A stretch of DNA of 63,832 nt, filler included, from Stramenopiles sp. TOSAG23-2 (lineage: Eukaryota), in assembly GCA_900128395.1 (NCBI GenBank). It is 9 parts of 9 records of this genome, joined end to end, with 100 filler letters (N's around TTAATTAATTAA, not from the genome) between each part and the next. Parts side by side here need not be neighbours in the genome. Positions count along the whole stretch, not along the records: positions 1 to 7,720 come from LT650282.1; 8 more parts are not named here. One strand, written 5' to 3'. This document shows, piece by piece, positions 1 to 7,820 of this stretch. The notes under the pieces are model-generated. The model did no database searches. It was given only the letters and a program-made list of their open reading frames with translations, and was not told where the DNA came from. Position 1 is the first letter of the stretch. The number at the start of each line of letters is the position of its first letter. The position numbers were made by a program, and so were the translations under genes.

Positions 1-75
1 TTAAATAAGAAATATATAGTGTTTTTGTTGTATATAAATACATATATATATAGTAAACAAACGTACAAGACAAAG

Positions 76-3000
76 ATGAAGTTTACAAATATATTATTAG
101 TCATATTGTTAGTATTATCTACAATAGCATGTATAAATAGTTTAGGAGTTGGTACTGGTGGTACTGGTAGCACTGGTAGCACTGGTAGCACTGGTGGTAC
201 TGGCAATACAGGTGCTTCTGGTGCAACTGGTTTAGATGAGCCTAGTGATGATATCACAGATGAAGGGCCAACTGGTGGCGTCATTGATATTTCACAAGCA
301 TTAAGTGAGGATTCTTCCACCGGTGTTACTGGTTCAGAAACTGGTGCAGAAACTGGTAGTACCGGTGCAGAAACGGGTGCTGAGACTGGCCCTGTTAATA
401 CAACCATTGTATCGGATCTAGATGAAGATGTTAATAAAACATATACGGAAGTTGTTAAACAAGAATTAGAAATAACAGCTGGAAGTACGGAGGTACTATC
501 TTTAAAAGATGTTCGAGATAAAGAAAACGAAATTTTTAAATCAATAGTTAAATTATTTTCAGGTATGGCATTAGCGAAGGATATAGCTATTACCTCGATT
601 GATACACCATCTTCCTCCTTAAGAAGAAGATTGCTAGCAGCAGATGATACAATTATTATCAATTACGAAGTTAAAGTGAAACGTGCGTCGAGAACAAACG
701 ATGTGAAAGCACGCATGGAAGCTGGAGAATTTCTAGAAGAACTAAAAAGTGATATATCATCCGCAACTAACGTGGACTTGGGAAAATTAAAAGTAGTTGC
801 AAAAACTCCGAAAGTAGAAGAATACGTTGCTCCTGTTCATATAGAATGTTTAAATAATTGTACCAACCGTGGTACGTGTGATTATTCAAAAGGCAAATGC
901 ACGTGTAATACCGGTTATTTCGGTAAAGGTTGTGAACGAATGTTAAATATTGATTGTCCACATGACTGTAGTGGTCATGGACGTTGTCAACAAACATTAA
1001 CTGACGGACCTAGTATTTGCCATTGCTCACCTGGTTACAGTGGCATTGACTGCTCGGAAGGGCGGTGCCTGAACGATTGTAGCGGGCGTGGTACTTGCTT
1101 GACCAAACCTGACCTATATTGCCAATGTAACTTTGGCTTTGTTGGTGCAGACTGTAGTAGAAAAGTGTGTCCAAATGATTGTTCCGGGCATGGATATTGT
1201 AACAACGGCGTTTGTACTTGCTTAGCAGGATACAGTGGTTATGACTGTGCCAAAGGTGCATGCCCAAGTGATTGCCATGGTCATGGTGTATGCCAACATC
1301 ATAAATGCCATTGCGATGCTGGTTTTGGTGGCCAAGATTGTGCAAAGGAAGTATGTGGTCCTGACTGTATGCATGGCGAATGTATTGATAATAAATGCAT
1401 TTGTTTCAAAGGTTTTGTTGGAAGAGATTGCGATACTCGTACTTGTGGTGGTGATATGGTATTGGATCCAGAATTTGCTTCCTCGAAAACTAGAAAAGCT
1501 ACGAAACCATTTTGCAGTGGAAACGGTATTTGCTCCGTTGACCATCGTTGCGAATGTGATTTTGGATTCACTGGTGAAATATGTGAATTTAGAGCATGTC
1601 CAGGAAATTGCTCTGCACATGGCGTTTGCTTAAATGGTACATGCCTGTGCGCTGATGGATATGTCGGCAACATGTGTCAGGATAAATTATGCCATGCAGA
1701 ATGTGAAAAACATGGCGAGTGTAACAATGGTACATGTGTATGTGATCCAGGTTATGGAGGTAAAAATTGCCAAGTAGCATTATGCCCAAAAAATTGCTCC
1801 GGGAAAGGTGTGTGTGAGCATGATGGCCGTTGCCGTTGTAATTTAGGATATGGTGGTATCGATTGCTCCGAGGCAATGTGTTTGAAAAATTGTAATGGCC
1901 ATGGTACATGTGGTATCGATGCGAATACTGGTGCCGGTAAATGCACTTGCCAGTTAGGTTTCGCCGGGGAACGCTGTAATATCCCAATTTGTCATAGCAA
2001 AAAATGTGAAAATGGTTATTGCGTTGATGGTCAATGTTATTGCCAAAAAGGATTTACGGGTAACCGCTGTGAAATCAAAGAATGCCCAATTGATGATAGG
2101 ACTGGTGTACCATGCCATGGTAATGGTCCATGCAAAAATGGCAAATGTATTTGTAACGAAGGGTATACCGGGGAAGATTGTAGCATATTGACAAAGCAAT
2201 GTCCACATGACTGCTCCAAGAATGGTGTGTGTACACCAAATGGATGCAAATGCTTTGAAGGATATCGTGGTACATCATGCGATCAAGTTGGTTGTAAGCG
2301 GAACTGCACAACACATGGTACCTGCGTGCATAACTCCCGGTGCGTATGCGATAAAGGATATGCTGGATTAGATTGCAATACCACATTCGTCTGCAACCCT
2401 ATGAACTGCTCTGGACACGGTGTTTGTAATGGACCTATGAAGTGTACATGTGATGAAGGGTGGATTGGAAATGACTGTTCTTTATCACTTTGTGGAGATA
2501 GTTGCGATTTGATCCATGGGCGTTGCCGGGCAAACCGCATGTGTGAATGTAAGCAAGGGTGGGGTGGACCAGACTGCTCATGTAGAAACATGCCTAAAGT
2601 TGGAGTATGTTCCGGGCGTGGTATGTGCGCAAAAGGTGAATGCTTTTGCGATGCATCTTTAGGTTATGGTGGAGCAGAATGTAATGAACCATTGTGTGCA
2701 AACATGTGTGCTGGACATGGTGAATGTTTAGCAAACAGACAATGCGATTGCGAAGAAGGTTGGGGCGGTGCAGATTGTAGCGACAGAGCATGCCCAATTA
2801 ATTGTACGGACCATGGTGTATGTGCACCTGGTGGTTTTTGTGTATGCTTAGGCGGTTATACTGGGTTGGCATGCGAGAGACGTACATGTGAAAATGATTG
2901 TTCAGGCCATGGACGTTGCAATAATGGAACGTGCATGTGTGCACCAGGATATACAGGTGACGACTGTTCTATAGTTTTATGTCCTCAAGATTGTAGTTCA

Positions 3001-3495
3001 AGAGGTAGTTGCGTGAATGGCACTTGTATGTGTGCTCCACGTTGGTTAGGTGCGGATTGTTCCGTGAAGGATTGTGAACATGGTAGATACAGTCCTGTTA
3101 AAGAAAAATGTGTATGTGAAACTGGTTTTACTGGTGAATGGTGTCAACGGAATGATACTGCCGATAGTTGCGGTGGGTGTTCCGGCCATGGTACATGTGA
3201 AGTCGATAGTGGTTTATGTAATTGTTTAGATGGTTATACTGGTGCACGATGTGCAATCGTTGTATGCCCAAATACATGTAGCGGCCATGGTCGCTGCGGT
3301 AGCTATGGTTGTACATGTGAGATGGGATGGGCTGGTATTACTTGTGGTACAGCACCGGAAGATGAGGATCAAGTAGGTTTATATACTGTGCGTAGGAAAG
3401 AAGGTGCTTTGCGAAAACGTATCACCGATGCAAAAAATAAAGACATGGATAGATTAGTGCACGGTCCACAAAGTTTATCGCCTCCACAAATATAG
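76..3495 (+). CDS. Secreted tenascin-like multi-EGF-repeat protein
   Basis: ATG at 76 starts a hydrophobic signal peptide (MKFTNILLVILLVLSTIACINS), followed by a TGS/TGA-rich linker, an RRRLL motif and more than 20 CxxxCSGHGxC...CxCxxGxxGxDC EGF units. Intronless. Confidence 0.9.
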   Translation: MKFTNILLVILLVLSTIACINSLGVGTGGTGSTGSTGSTGGTGNTGASGATGLDEPSDDITDEGPTGGVIDISQALSEDSSTGVTGSETGAETGSTGAETGAETGPVNTTIVSDLDEDVNKTYTEVVKQELEITAGSTEVLSLKDVRDKENEIFKSIVKLFSGMALAKDIAITSIDTPSSSLRRRLLAADDTIIINYEVKVKRASRTNDVKARMEAGEFLEELKSDISSATNVDLGKLKVVAKTPKVEEYVAPVHIECLNNCTNRGTCDYSKGKCTCNTGYFGKGCERMLNIDCPHDCSGHGRCQQTLTDGPSICHCSPGYSGIDCSEGRCLNDCSGRGTCLTKPDLYCQCNFGFVGADCSRKVCPNDCSGHGYCNNGVCTCLAGYSGYDCAKGACPSDCHGHGVCQHHKCHCDAGFGGQDCAKEVCGPDCMHGECIDNKCICFKGFVGRDCDTRTCGGDMVLDPEFASSKTRKATKPFCSGNGICSVDHRCECDFGFTGEICEFRACPGNCSAHGVCLNGTCLCADGYVGNMCQDKLCHAECEKHGECNNGTCVCDPGYGGKNCQVALCPKNCSGKGVCEHDGRCRCNLGYGGIDCSEAMCLKNCNGHGTCGIDANTGAGKCTCQLGFAGERCNIPICHSKKCENGYCVDGQCYCQKGFTGNRCEIKECPIDDRTGVPCHGNGPCKNGKCICNEGYTGEDCSILTKQCPHDCSKNGVCTPNGCKCFEGYRGTSCDQVGCKRNCTTHGTCVHNSRCVCDKGYAGLDCNTTFVCNPMNCSGHGVCNGPMKCTCDEGWIGNDCSLSLCGDSCDLIHGRCRANRMCECKQGWGGPDCSCRNMPKVGVCSGRGMCAKGECFCDASLGYGGAECNEPLCANMCAGHGECLANRQCDCEEGWGGADCSDRACPINCTDHGVCAPGGFCVCLGGYTGLACERRTCENDCSGHGRCNNGTCMCAPGYTGDDCSIVLCPQDCSSRGSCVNGTCMCAPRWLGADCSVKDCEHGRYSPVKEKCVCETGFTGEWCQRNDTADSCGGCSGHGTCEVDSGLCNCLDGYTGARCAIVVCPNTCSGHGRCGSYGCTCEMGWAGITCGTAPEDEDQVGLYTVRRKEGALRKRITDAKNKDMDRLVHGPQSLSPPQI

Positions 3496-3715
3496 ATTTT
3501 TCAACACTATCAAATGTACATTCCCCCCCCCCCCAACACAAACATTTTTCCCCCAAAACAGTAAGAGAGAGAGAGAAGAGAGAGATTTTATAAAAATTAC
3601 GAGTATCATATGATATGACATAGTAAAACAAAGAAAATTATACGTTCGTAAAAGAAAATATTTTTACTTCGTAATATTTATCGTACAAACCCTAATATGA
3701 TTTTCGTAATCTTCT

Positions 3716-5537
3716 TTACAGCTTTGAAACTGTTTGTCTTCCACCTCCATTCATTAATTCTTTTGGACACCAACATGCATGCGTTCCTGAGCTAATTCGA
3801 TGTGGTAATTTCATTCTACATACTGGTCCAGCACTTACATCCAATCCATCAATTAAGATTACTTCACTTTGATTTTTATCCATATCTGTAACTAATGTAA
3901 CTAAATATCCATCATCTTCACTCTTTGGGTTCGTTCTTGGTGCAAATGCAGGCTCGCTACAATATCGATTTGTACCACAATTATATGTTACTGATGTATT
4001 ATTATCTAAATCATGTTTCACAATACCAGTGAATAATAACCATGCCGGTTTCAATAATGCGGAATATGCATATCTGTATGTTTTACCTGCATATGCTTGA
4101 TTGAACACGCCGAATTCTGTTAGGCGATCTTTTCTGTCATCTAATGGGCCTTCAACTGTTTCATTTGTCGTTAAGTTAAATTGCCATCTCCATAATTTGC
4201 ATTGTAATATATCCATCCCTCCAAGATTTGGAAATATTTTATGATACTACATAATATGTGAAAAGTTAGAGACAAATTCTAGATCTAATATATATAAATA
4301 TATTATATTATAATATCAATAACGAAATTATCTATATATCAGAATTACGATATTTACTTACTTTCTCATCAACCTCCTTTTTCCATGCTGTATTATTTTT
4401 TGGTGAATTTGGATTTGGTCCACCATCATACATACATTGGCGATACCCATCCATTACAATAACTTCTTCTCCTTTATCATTTACCTTTTCATATGCATTT
4501 AGAAAATGTAATACAAATGTTGTTTTCACTTCAAAAAAACGTACTTCACTACTTTGTCCATATCGAGGGATGACAGCAAAGCGACATGGTTTTCGACTTG
4601 TGCGGTTTTTGAATTTTCCTTGCTTTAATAATTTTTCATCAAATTGTGTTGCAAGATCTGATAAAATTGAATAATTTTCAGAAAAACACATATCGTGTGG
4701 TAGTTTTGGAGCAGAGAGAGGAATATCTACATAATGAACTAGTTTTTCATCTGGGGAAACAACACCATAATGCATAAATGGTGCTTCTGTGGTATAGTTG
4801 AAGAATAGCAATTCTCCAGTTGCTTCATCAACTTTAGCATGAGCAGATATTCCATCTTTAGGAAAATATGTGGATTTCCCTAAATTTTCCATTGAATCTG
4901 GATCTAGCCTATATGGTTCGCCGCACCTATACCACATGGTTAGTATTTTTCCAGCATGGACAACAACATCTGTTCTGTGGAGTGTAGCATATGAATGAGT
5001 GATGTGTTAGAGGGTATATATCTTGGTTTAGGGGAATAGGAATAGAATTTACTAACGATGATGTATCTTTCAATTTTTTTTCTAACCCCCAACCGTCTTT
5101 TCTCTCGGCTTTATTCATATCTCTTTCACTAACCCCTACCCATAAACTTCTATTAGCTTTTTGTTCTGCTAAGAAACCATCAGTTTTAACAAAACGATTA
5201 CGATAGGAACATTTACCACTACCATCTAATGATACTTGATGTAACATTGCATCTCCATCAAATGGATGATAATTTCCAAGTGGTTTGTGAGTAGGTTGCT
5301 CCGTGTTTCGTAAATAAACTCCTGAAACATCTGAAGGACATGTCCCTTCCAACACTTCTAATGATGGTACATTAACTTCAGTCAAATTCGGTGCACTGTG
5401 GAGCGTAGTGTATGAATGAGTGATGTGTTAGAGGGTATATCTTGGTTTAGGGAAATAGAATTTACTTACAAAACACCTGACATGTAAGGGTGATCTGTTT
5501 GACCTAGATTTGAATATGCTTTTGATACGACTTCCAT
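3716..5537 (-). CDS. Carotenoid/stilbene cleavage oxygenase (RPE65/CCD family), 4 exons (5537-5470, 5395-5057, 4974-4362, 4246-3716), C-terminal PTS1 SKL
   Basis: Splicing GT-AG introns 5396-5469, 4975-5056 and 4247-4361 gives one frame: MEVVSKAYSNLGQTDHPYMSGVFAPNLTEV...HPFDGDAMLH...KDTSSTDVVVHAG...SAHAK...PHDM...VLHF...GTHACW...SKL. The four Fe-binding His contexts are present. Confidence 0.9.
4247..4361 (-). other. Ordinary AT-rich spliceosomal intron (115 nt)
   Basis: GTAAGT donor, CTAAC branch-like site and TAG acceptor. Removal joins EVDEK to YHKIFPNLGGMDILQC in frame. Confidence 0.85.
4975..5056 (-). mobile_element. Introner-like repeated spliceosomal intron, copy B (82 nt)
   Basis: GTTAGT...CTAACACATCACTCATTCATATGCTACACTCCACAG. 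Near-identical to 5396-5469 and 6993-7074. Removal restores KDTSS/TDVVVHAG. Confidence 0.85.
5396..5469 (-). mobile_element. Introner-like repeated spliceosomal intron, copy A (74 nt)
   Basis: GTAAGTAAATTCTATTTCCCTAAACCAAGATATACCCTCTAACACATCACTCATTCATACACTACGCTCCACAG. Removal restores SGVF/APNLTEV. Confidence 0.85.
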
Positions 5538-5566
5538 GTGTGTTGTATAAGGATGGTATGTGGGTA

Positions 5567-5670
5567 TAATTTTCTCTTACTCATATATTATATATATATA
5601 TATATATTGATATCCTACATAATTCTCTTACTCATATATTATATATATATATATATATATTGATATCCTA
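5567..5670. repeat. Tandem duplication of about 52 bp containing a (TA)n microsatellite, upstream of the oxygenase
   Basis: Two copies of TCTCTTACTCATATATTA(TA)nTTGATATCCTAC. Confidence 0.7.
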
Positions 5671-5888
5671 CTTTTGTGTCTATTATTATGATATAAATAA
5701 TTATCATTTATTATTTTTTAATTGATGAAAATGAGAATATAGTTTGCACAGTGGACTGATACCACCACGCGGAGATGGGACGACAGAAATTCAAAATAAA
5801 GTTTATAATACATACAATATGCTATACCTCTCTCGATTAATATAGTATATTATACATATATTATGTACACTTCTGTACACCCTTTATA

Positions 5889-7623
5889 TTACAATGAAGA
5901 ACAATTAAAACCATGGATAACAGGCAATTCTCTTCTTAATGCCTCTGCTACATGTGGTAACTTCAATTTCAAATCATGCATATCAAATGGATCAGCAACT
6001 GTGTCAAATAGGAGTTTGGTATAACCATCCTTTTCCGGTTTGCCAACATATTTAGGTGCCCCAGGACATTTGCCTTTGCAACAAATAAACTTATACGTAG
6101 ACATTGGCGGGCCATTAAATTCAGATACTACTAGACGAAATGACCAGTCATTACGTCTCCCTTCAATAGCTCCTTTCTCGTTGCCATCACTAAAGGCATT
6201 TTTTTGCAATCCACTATGAATAACAGTACGATTTAGCTTTGTTTGATCTGCACTTTCCAACAATCCTCTAAAACTTCTTGCTGTCATGTTTGAATCTCGA
6301 TATTGCCAAGCATTGGCAATATCAAGCACTGTTGCTCCAATATCAATTGTAGCAATTGGTACTTCCAAACTTACGTTGCCACGAATGCCTGGACCAGCAC
6401 ATACCAAAGGCACGTTAAGTGCTCCCTGCCATGGTTTACTTTTATCAACATCATCATGATCATTGAGCATTTCACCATGATCACTGAAAAAGCAAGCAAT
6501 TGTATCTTTTTCAATTGAATTACCACGTTCATTCACTGCATCTAATACTTTACCAAAAAGCCTATCCAGATTTTCCATTTCCGCTCCATAATTACAGCGT
6601 GTTCTTGCGTTTGATGGCTCCATTAAATTTTGTTCGCAATTAGGTACTTTTCGCTTTGAATCAACTGGATTTGGCCATCTTCTTCCAGCAGTTTCATTAC
6701 CCATTTCTTCTGTAACAGCAAACGGTGGATGCGGGCCTGGGAAACTTACCCACATTAACCATGGTTTATCTTTCGGTGCTCTTTTCAAAAGCGTAGCCGC
6801 TTGATCTGCTGTAAAATCATCTTGATAAAGTCTTTGTGGAAATGTAGATGTTTGACAAATTTTAGGATCAAATTTAACCATGCAATGACGATGGGCAACA
6901 AATGCATTAATTTCTGTGCCATTTGACAATCGCAATGTTTGGTCATTTAAAAAATAACCAAATGGTTCATGCGGTTTTGGCCAAGTACACATCTGTGGAG
7001 CGTAGTGTATGAATGAATGATGTGTTAGAAAAGATGTTCTTCTTGGTTTAGGAGAATAGAATTTTACTTAAAACTCCGCCCTTACCCTCAAATCGAATTG
7101 AATCACTGAAACCCAGAGCATGTGCAAGATATGTGTTACTAGCATTACGTGTATCTTTTCCAATTTCATATCCAAGATGCGTTGCTTTTGTTAAGTCATC
7201 TTTACCAGTTGACATTGTATGATATCCAGCACGTTGCAACGCAGTGAAATACGTCGGATTTTCTTTCGCCTTATAATCATTGGCTTTATTATTTGGGACA
7301 CCTGCATGGTCATATTCTCTTAAAGAAGCCATGCAGGCACGTGACGGAGCACATACTGGAGCTGGTACAACGGCACCACGTGGAAATGTAGTTCCAAGAG
7401 CACGCAGTCGCTCTATATGTGGCAAATGAAGAGGTGGTGCTTCCCCAACATTTTTATGAGTAAGCCCGTCCCAGTCCCATCTCCATTGATCTGGCATCAA
7501 AAGAAGTACATTAGGTCTTGAATCCTCGGATGCTAATGCTGAAATTGTTGTTGTTACAAAAATTAAAGTTAACAATAAAAATGCCTTCATTATTGATAAT
7601 GATACTAATAGAGGATGAATCAT
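5889..7623 (-). CDS. Secreted sulfatase (formylglycine-dependent, S1 family), 2 exons
   Basis: Signal peptide, RPNVLLLMPDQWR, CAPSR active-site motif, GKDD, SFPGPHPP and SDHGEML. One intron at 6993-7074 (or 7071) joins the two ORFs in phase 0. Confidence 0.9.
6993..7074 (-). mobile_element. Introner-like repeated intron, copy C, in the sulfatase
   Basis: (GTT)TTAAGTAAAATTCTATTCTCCTAAACCAAGAAGAACATCTTTTCTAACACATCATTCATTCATACACTACGCTCCACAG. Same family as copies A and B. The donor is either GT at 7074 or TT at 7071. Confidence 0.8.
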
Positions 7624-7720
7624 TGTATTTATAAGAAATATCTAGAATTTTATAGTAATAATATAATATTTAAAAATCCAATAACTATATTTCTTTTTGG
7701 CTAATCTATAATTTATTATA

Positions 7721-7820
7721 NNNNNNNNNNNNNNNNNNNNNNNNNNNNNNNNNNNNNNNNNNNNTTAATTAATTAANNNNNNNNNNNNNNNNNNNNNNNN
7801 NNNNNNNNNNNNNNNNNNNN
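7721..7820. other. Artificial contig spacer (N44-TTAATTAATTAA-N44); same spacer at 15534-15633, 23347-23446, 31151-31250, 38955-39054, 46743-46842, 54523-54622 and 62282-62381
   Basis: Identical 100-nt N-runs carrying a six-frame stop linker. The complete contigs between them shrink monotonically (7713, 7713, 7704, 7704, 7688, 7680, 7659 bp). Confidence 0.98.

Follow-up and report, generated by a model that had tools for sequence, protein, structure and literature searches.

A family of short, sense-oriented introners in a likely uncultured marine stramenopile, possibly spread by a transcription-coupled route

Where new spliceosomal introns come from has long been asked without a settled answer. 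The chief source identified so far is introners, mobile elements each of which forms a complete spliceosomal intron. Here, we describe a family of short introns that was recognized through three copies in two neighbouring genes, a carotenoid-cleavage oxygenase and a sulfatase, in a 63,832-nt stretch of DNA (the window) from Stramenopiles sp. TOSAG23-2 (assembly GCA_900128395.1). The window consists of nine separate pieces (eight measure about 7.7 kb and one measures 1.5 kb), which are arranged roughly from longest to shortest and joined by linkers of the form N44-TTAATTAATTAA-N44 at 7721-7820, 15534, 23347, 31151, 38955, 46743, 54523 and 62282; because the pieces are separate contigs, adjacency across a linker is without meaning. 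All three copies are located on the first piece (1-7720, one 7.7-kb contig), which carries an EGF-repeat gene on the plus strand and the oxygenase and sulfatase genes on the minus strand. The features of this piece are as follows.

5396..5469, minus strand: copy A, the 74-nt phase-2 intron 1 of the oxygenase, GTAAGT..CACAG (nhmmer E=8e-16)
4975..5056, minus strand: copy B, the 82-nt phase-2 intron 2 of the oxygenase, GTTAGT..CACAG (nhmmer E=8e-15)
6993..7071, minus strand: copy C, the 79-nt phase-0 intron of the sulfatase (nhmmer E=1e-16)
5427..5432 (A), 5006-5011 (B) and 7024-7029 (C), minus strand: TCTAAC motif, a putative branch point
7071, minus strand: first base of the copy C donor, T in the window (TTAAGT) and G in other DNA of the locus (GTAAGT)
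3716..5537, minus strand: carotenoid-cleavage-oxygenase gene (RPE65 family), exons 5537-5470, 5395-5057, 4974-4362 and 4246-3716
4247..4361, minus strand: unrelated AT-rich intron 3 of the oxygenase, 115 nt, phase 0, located by RNA joints
5889..7590, minus strand: sulfatase gene, exons 7590-7072 and 6992-5889, placed by alignment with homologues
1-3495, plus strand: EGF-repeat gene, whose one open frame extends over more than 1,160 codons

A 37-nt core taken from copy A matches the window at 4975, 5396 and 6993 when up to 3 mismatches are allowed (none expected from 100 shuffles), and a repeat search of the window returned the same three copies. BLAST aligned A with B at 90.8% over 65 nt, in an alignment that by eye bears out the roughly five substitutions and two indels counted in the preliminary description of this locus, and A with C at 97.3% over 37 nt and 91.7% over 24 nt. 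The copies are clearly related, and the earlier term 'near-identical' is generous for end-to-end identities, between allelic representatives, of 0.854 (A-B), 0.85 (A-C) and 0.765 (B-C). All three copies lie in the sense orientation of their host genes and are poor in G (5, 5 and 6 residues in A, B and C), as had been noted, and the intron at 4247-4361, which had been set apart as unrelated, has no nhmmer match to the family profile. The statement that three copies lie within 2.1 kb holds for the count, with the scope of a single 7.7-kb contig, as the window is otherwise made of separate pieces.

Splicing of the copies was evidenced by mapping contigs of three RNA runs (X15, X17 and X18, from three studies) and of one DNA run (X4) on 3600-7700. 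The joint of copy B (4974|5057) was present in RNA contigs of X15 and X17 (two studies), and those of copy A (5395|5470) and copy C (6992|7072) in RNA contigs of X15 (one study each); in addition, an X17 contig ending at 6992 carries a 15-letter loose end, read by eye as 7072-7086. The joint of the unrelated intron (4246|4362) was likewise detected in X15 and X17. None of the four joints was seen in X18, whose contigs stop near exon ends, or in the DNA run X4, whose contigs continue through the introns. When the introns are removed at the borders given earlier, frames of 1563 and 1626 nt are open, and the sulfatase frame stays open with the corrected copy C. Alignments of the spliced proteins with eukaryotic and bacterial oxygenases and with sulfatases are gap-free across all three junctions; therefore, insertion has left no codon added or lost. 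The proposals that removing each intron restores the reading frame, that metatranscriptomes would reveal splicing, and that the copies carry donor, branch-point-like motif and acceptor and insert cleanly have thus been upheld by exact RNA joints, open frames and gap-free proteins.

The correction concerns the 5' border of copy C, which had been placed at 7074. The RNA joint at 6992|7072 and the family alignment both place the donor at 7071, and the sulfatase homologues retain ...GKGGV|(L/M)CTWPKP, from which an 82-nt model of the copy would delete the valine; the border is therefore 7071. At this position an X4 metagenome DNA contig has C in place of A (depth 9.21 of 9.21), and a metagenome contig of the same locus (L050) also reads GTAAGT. 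The T of the window may be an amplification or sequencing error, or a true allele that would force splicing to start from a different donor, for which the in-frame GT lying 3 nt upstream is a candidate.

To define the family beyond the window, metagenome contigs were scanned with an exact 22-nt core that starts at TCTAAC, which returned 54 matches in 52 loci; TCTAAC is thus present in the scan-derived copies by selection. A profile search of 335 kb of DNA returned 67 hits (65 with E<1e-6). These represent 43 distinct sites, 40 of them beyond the three of the window; the number becomes 44 when two paralogous sites are split. Two of the loci, L039 and L050, represent the locus of the window as recovered in another assembly, with L050 covering copy C. 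Host ORFs (open reading frames) are mostly unrelated in an all-against-all BLASTP, with likeness among four ABC-transporter hosts, one pair of which has a common intron position, and in one further pair at 28% identity. RNA splicing was seen for the three window copies, and splicing at the other 40 sites is indicated by restored ORFs. The G+C content of all loci (28-37%) is like that of the window's pieces. Third-codon-position identity between allelic pairs is 90% or higher, which suggests that the sample comes from a single species complex.

The copies measure 74-96 nt (median 82) and consist of 8.5% G, 28% C, 36% A and 27% T. They share a donor block GTAAGTAAA followed by a TTCTATTCCCCTAAACC-like stretch, a variable and often A-rich centre that defines subfamilies, the TCTAAC motif about 30 nt from the copy end, and a C/A-rich tail ending in CACAG; the motif is kept by most of the copies that were found only via the profile. 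GTAAGTAAA also opens the unrelated intron at 4247-4361, and TCTAAC is found close to the 3' end of that intron, so these two elements are the organism's general splice signals, whereas the remainder is family-specific. The profile alignment spans model positions 1-5 to 77-83 of 83 in nearly all full copies, beyond which the flanks are unrelated, and in the contig mapping 5395/5396 is where loose ends belonging to other copies start. A heuristic search for introns outside the family gave seven distinct ones of 89-316 nt, and the other introns of the window and the loci are unrelated to the family in sequence. Side forms were also observed: a tandemly duplicated degenerate copy (L036:2989-3112, minus strand), a copy with its 5' block duplicated (L019:541-619), a copy embedded in an intron of about 125 nt that uses an upstream donor (L009:3319-3445), and a 114-nt intron with faint family resemblance (L012:642-755).

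In a published working definition, introners are sets of introns that resemble one another up to both splice borders (PMC9860276). The present introns are alike at 43 distinct sites, with a likeness that extends to, or nearly to, both borders and then stops, and the three window copies are spliced. The three window copies are very probably members of an introner family, and the earlier proposal of an intron-generating repeat family is strengthened by the 40 further sites in mostly unrelated genes.

Because an 80-nt repeat gives rise to chimeric metagenome assemblies, misassembly or amplification chimerism, in the single-cell or the metagenome assembly, deserves attention as a source of the pattern. 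Chimeric X4 contigs indeed jump between copies (5011 to 5444; 5442 to 7008), and loci L013 and L037 have a common 5' flank and differ 3' of the repeat. Yet the same copies with the same flanks occur in the independent metagenome contig L039 (and copy C also in L050), words of the contig are present in 20 runs from 13 studies, exact splicing at the borders is seen in RNA contigs, the frames are restored, and the repeat is not of low complexity, its 37-nt core being without chance matches in the shuffles. An artefact of this kind, which the preliminary description had named as a danger, is practically negligible as an explanation. In the X4 mapping, depth rises to 286 and 55 in intron bins against about 9 elsewhere, with many loose ends at the element borders; this rise is a sign of other copies in the metagenome and is not to be read as copy number. 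A summed contig depth of 321, against about 9, was also seen at 4285-4421, over the AT-rich intron, where it probably reflects cross-matching of low-complexity (TA)n and not another repeat family.

The ends of the element were compared over the 43 sites. No target-site duplication (TSD) was found flank to flank at k=4, and at k=3 it was found at 2 of 43 sites (1.0 under the null); no excess was found with one repeat placed inside the intron. As for terminal inverted repeats (TIRs), the first 12 nt match the reverse complement of the last 12 nt at a mean of only 3.7 of 12 positions. The absence of TSDs and TIRs, first noticed in three copies, is therefore borne out over 43. The flanks have a weak G|G preference (G at -1 in 18/43, P=0.0014; G at +1 in 16/43, P=0.01), and phase 2 is over-represented (22/43, P=0.012). 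Folding of five copies as RNA gave minimum free energies of 0 to -5.9 kcal/mol with z-scores of -0.82 to +1.01, no better than shuffles, in agreement with the earlier expectation that the G-poor copies could hardly form hairpins. The spacing between neighbouring copies (190-2255 nt) has no clear nucleosome-like period by eye. A longer, possibly autonomous element with the family's ends, which had been suggested as something to look for, did not turn up in the 335 kb examined. Viral contigs contain no match to either of two family motifs and thus give no sign of a viral vector. Separately, a known intron-borne small RNA was considered and rejected, as Rfam returned no match on 3600-7720 at E up to 1.

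These results are most readily explained by a short introner family that spreads through a transcription-coupled route, a statement to which, as a whole, we assign a probability of about 0.5. A copy with its own donor, branch-point-like motif and acceptor would enter a coding exon, and the spliceosome would then remove it exactly and leave the protein unchanged. New copies would most likely arise via a transcription-coupled, strand-specific route, in which an excised intron reverse-splices into RNA or R-loop DNA and is then copied into DNA, and some copies may have arisen from neighbours. Such a route is favoured because none of the 43 sites is non-coding, the ends are exactly GT/AG and the footprint is zero, and a cut-and-paste DNA transposase is less likely. 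Taken on its own, a route through RNA and the spliceosome is tentative, falling just short of an even bet: the RNA-mediated spread first suggested is a possible mechanism that fits the strict sense-only pattern. The fullest version, in which the excised 80-nt intron reverse-splices into transcribed sense DNA or RNA, sometimes near its source, with a site preference that suffices to reach the same codon position in two paralogues of 46% identity, is rather unlikely when all of its parts are held jointly.

Several points weigh against the transcription-coupled introner reading. The remaining 56 kb of the window yielded no additional hit to the family profile. One 80-nt X15 contig is unspliced over the donor of copy A, for which pre-mRNA or library DNA is a possible source. 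The exact-core scan favours working introns, and decayed, intergenic and antisense copies may be under-sampled in the 335 kb examined. Most introners, including many without TSDs or TIRs, have been argued to move as DNA (PMC9860276). No empty-site allele was seen in the X4 contigs, which drop rare variants. The intron-less state that we infer for the nearest relatives at the three window positions comes from gene calls, and some of the contigs could derive from cDNA. Finally, a family intron occupies one and the same codon position, in the same phase, in each of two ABC-transporter paralogues whose proteins are 46% identical (L027:6259-6339 and L030:1781-1863).

This shared position is one argument for the view that the introns are old and immobile, with conserved blocks kept by selection (as extended splicing signals or for a bound factor) or by gene conversion. 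The two introns are 84% identical, while the third codon positions of the paralogues are saturated at 37.5%; GTAAGTAAA and TCTAAC recur in the unrelated oxygenase intron and are in part a general splice signal; and, as in X4, intron-less alleles were missing among the loci (no alignment across emptied junctions), which were chosen for having a copy. The earlier suggestion to look for such alleles has therefore yielded none, and any ongoing mobility is conjectural. Against old introns, the L027 and L030 introns differ in their centres, and the L027 intron most resembles the copy in L008, whose site is unrelated (96.3%). Identity between unrelated sites goes up to 98.8% overall (L005/L052), with even the variable centre nearly identical; the mean over 903 pairs is 78%. 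Allelic introns vary at least as much as third codon positions (identity of 88.2% vs 99.4%, and of 96.3% vs 99.2%), so the intron is not under strong constraint, and the likeness of copies appears to reflect recent copying and not constraint. The other introns of the window and loci also have no part in the likeness, and the closest relatives of the oxygenase outside eukaryotes are bacterial.

Presence and absence may point in the same direction. Locus L027 has a second copy where its paralogue in L030 has, at the DNA level, an uninterrupted 983-codon ORF. The closest orthologues, whose comparison had been proposed as a check, are called as uninterrupted proteins across all three window positions: oxygenase orthologue P0121 (83% identity, IMG, on a 6.5-kb contig) is continuous over the A and B junctions, and sulfatase orthologues P0242-P0250 (73-79% identity; P0249 on a 15-kb contig) are continuous over the C junction. 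The sulfatase of the same species has been called as exon 2 alone (P0241, 367 aa, 89 member sequences), so at least that gene call did not bridge the intron. From these comparisons the family seems to have spread recently, and immobile old introns are an improbable account of it. The position shared by L027 and L030 is possibly a case of parallel insertion, or of replacement at a preferred site, with an old intron whose ends were homogenized or constrained as the alternatives.

The same introner family could instead move as DNA, as a non-autonomous transposon derivative (helitron-, crypton- or integrase-like) that is free of TSDs and TIRs or leaves a 1-2-nt duplication that escapes notice; the sense-only pattern would then result from selection and detection. 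There is precedent for this: of 130 families assessable for TSDs and TIRs, 40.8% have neither, yet most are argued to be DNA-borne, and introners show genic enrichment in 161 of 175 genomes (PMC9860276), while helitron and crypton introners free of TSDs have been described (PMC12130899). Antisense exonic insertions would be lethal and hence unseen, and selection would keep the exact 22-nt core intact in working introns alone. The distribution of the copies speaks against a DNA route. At 42 of the 43 sites the summed ORFs are longer in sense than in antisense (medians of 464 and 61 codons), at least 30 codons are open on both sides at 39 of 43, and the single exception in the ORF test is a copy between two same-strand ORFs, within a longer intron. 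None of the 43 sites in the 335 kb, a sample biased by the exact-core scan, is intergenic or antisense, despite the roughly 15% of non-coding DNA (about 13-18% of the examined DNA is outside long ORFs); if insertion into DNA were random and antisense exonic copies alone were lost, the chance of finding no non-coding copy would be about 2e-6 to 9e-4. Further, the ends match GT/AG exactly at every site with no codon added or lost, and neither a longer element with the same ends in the 335 kb nor a copy in viral contigs was found. The ends are also not helitron-like, and the flanks have only the weak G|G preference; helitrons are recognized by TC...CTRR and by insertion between A and T. We consider a DNA route the lesser of the two, with a substantial minority chance.

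The idea that the three window copies spread locally has fared unevenly. By global identity, the eight within-locus pairs are no more alike than the others (0.775 vs 0.783, P=0.65). At the level of short words, the three window copies share two 8-mers seen at no other site (0.2% of random triples), A and B share six private 8-mers, and a test on the summed private 8-mers gave P=0.026. There are six multi-copy loci, and the copies within each are always on the same strand. The private words lend weak support to copying from neighbour to neighbour, a signal that gene conversion would also produce.

The family can be compared with the kinds of introners described so far, which comprise 548 families from 175 genomes, have family medians of 30-654 nt in length and occur most often in aquatic protists; 520 partial aquatic genomes have also been screened (PMC9860276). 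It behaves most like the introner elements (IEs) of Micromonas pusilla that are without TSDs or TIRs, which are likewise in sense within transcription units, spliced out and devoid of protein, and which also occur as near-identical copies at unrelated sites with presence/absence patterns that indicate gain (PMC4540971, PMC9860276). The R-loop model for these IEs, with reverse splicing into mRNA or R-loop DNA, predicts insertions near one another (PMC4540971). Differences lie in the stem-loop predicted for the IEs, whereas the present copies fold no better than shuffles (PMC4540971), and in the dozens of identical IE copies, compared with a top identity of 98.8% here (PMC4540971, PMC9860276). 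The host of those IEs is a green alga, from which the present host differs by its POLD1 tree, and the likeness described here is one of features. Micromonas IEs are also longer than the present copies.

Fungal introner-like elements (ILEs) are similar in having no TSD or TIR, a strong gene bias and a proposed reverse-splicing origin (PMC3609843, PMC9860276). They are thought to decay into ordinary introns, and degenerate relatives are present here too (L036, L012). Fungal ILEs, however, are longer than regular introns and have stable predicted secondary structure, whereas the present copies are as short as, or shorter than, regular introns (82 vs 89-316 nt) and unstructured (z -0.82 to +1.01). 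The introners of Micromonas and Aureococcus that resemble miniature inverted-repeat transposable elements (MITEs) share with the family their short length, non-autonomy, ability to create introns and marine picoeukaryotic hosts; they have TSDs of 3-9 bp and/or TIRs and often take one splice site from the TSD (PMC9860276). Aureococcus introners add 12 nt to the mRNA, whereas the present family has zero footprint with both splice sites inside (PMC9860276). 'Direct insertion' introners, such as those of Alternaria alternata, are alike in lacking any feature of known transposition and in that the element equals the intron; they differ in lineage and habitat and were compared by description only (PMC9860276). 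In sum, the family lacks both the TSDs and TIRs of MITE-like introners and the structure and length of ILEs. Aureococcus is itself a stramenopile. The family is an introner of an already known kind, unusually small, and defines no new class of element. It may already be listed in published introner catalogues; no published description of it was found in a search that left the catalogue supplements aside.

The host is likely an uncultured marine stramenopile, judging from its POLD1 sequence. Most of the top named POLD1 relatives are stramenopiles (57-60% identity), and fungi have similar values; environmental sequences reach 63-99%. In a tree of 30 sequences chosen by hand, namely that of the window and, from 120 listed hits, 17 with names and 12 without, the window is placed in a clade of unnamed sequences adjoining oomycetes and ochrophytes with a support of 0.80. 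The host may belong to a marine stramenopile (MAST) lineage.

The RNA (reverse-splicing) route of intron gain rests mainly on the fungal and Micromonas cases, and most catalogued families have been argued to be DNA-borne. If the transcription-coupled reading is true, the family would offer a compact, unstructured and naturally abundant model of RNA-mediated intron gain outside fungi and green algae, whose spread could be traced in ocean metagenomes and metatranscriptomes. The family is minimal, at about 82 nt with no structure, TSD, TIR or footprint, and strictly sense. Since the uncultured host is abundant and represented in many public DNA and RNA runs, polymorphism, splicing efficiency and insertion rules are measurable in nature. 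Two paralogues may have received family insertions in parallel at a single site. The family also shows introns colonizing a gene that, a small eukaryotic clade aside, has its nearest relatives among bacteria.

That gene, the oxygenase, is collinear with the Pfam RPE65 profile over exons 2-4 (profile positions 2-94, 109-295 and 321-469). Beyond the small eukaryotic clade, its relatives (over exon 3) are alphaproteobacterial apocarotenoid-15,15'-oxygenases at 55-62% identity, which suggests a bacterial gene that was gained intron-less by this protist lineage and later colonized by three introns. The protein ends in SKL, and the eukaryotic versions end in SKL, AKL or PRL, presumably a peroxisomal-type tail. 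The Pfam Sulfatase profile covers both exons of the sulfatase (profile positions 1-102 and 139-300). The EGF-repeat gene at 1-3495 is intron-free and encodes dozens of EGF/tenascin-like cysteine repeats after a signal-like start. Between the oxygenase start and the sulfatase end, at 5566-5671, are two tandem 53-nt units that are rich in (TA)n and 83% identical, and at which both RNA and DNA contigs break.

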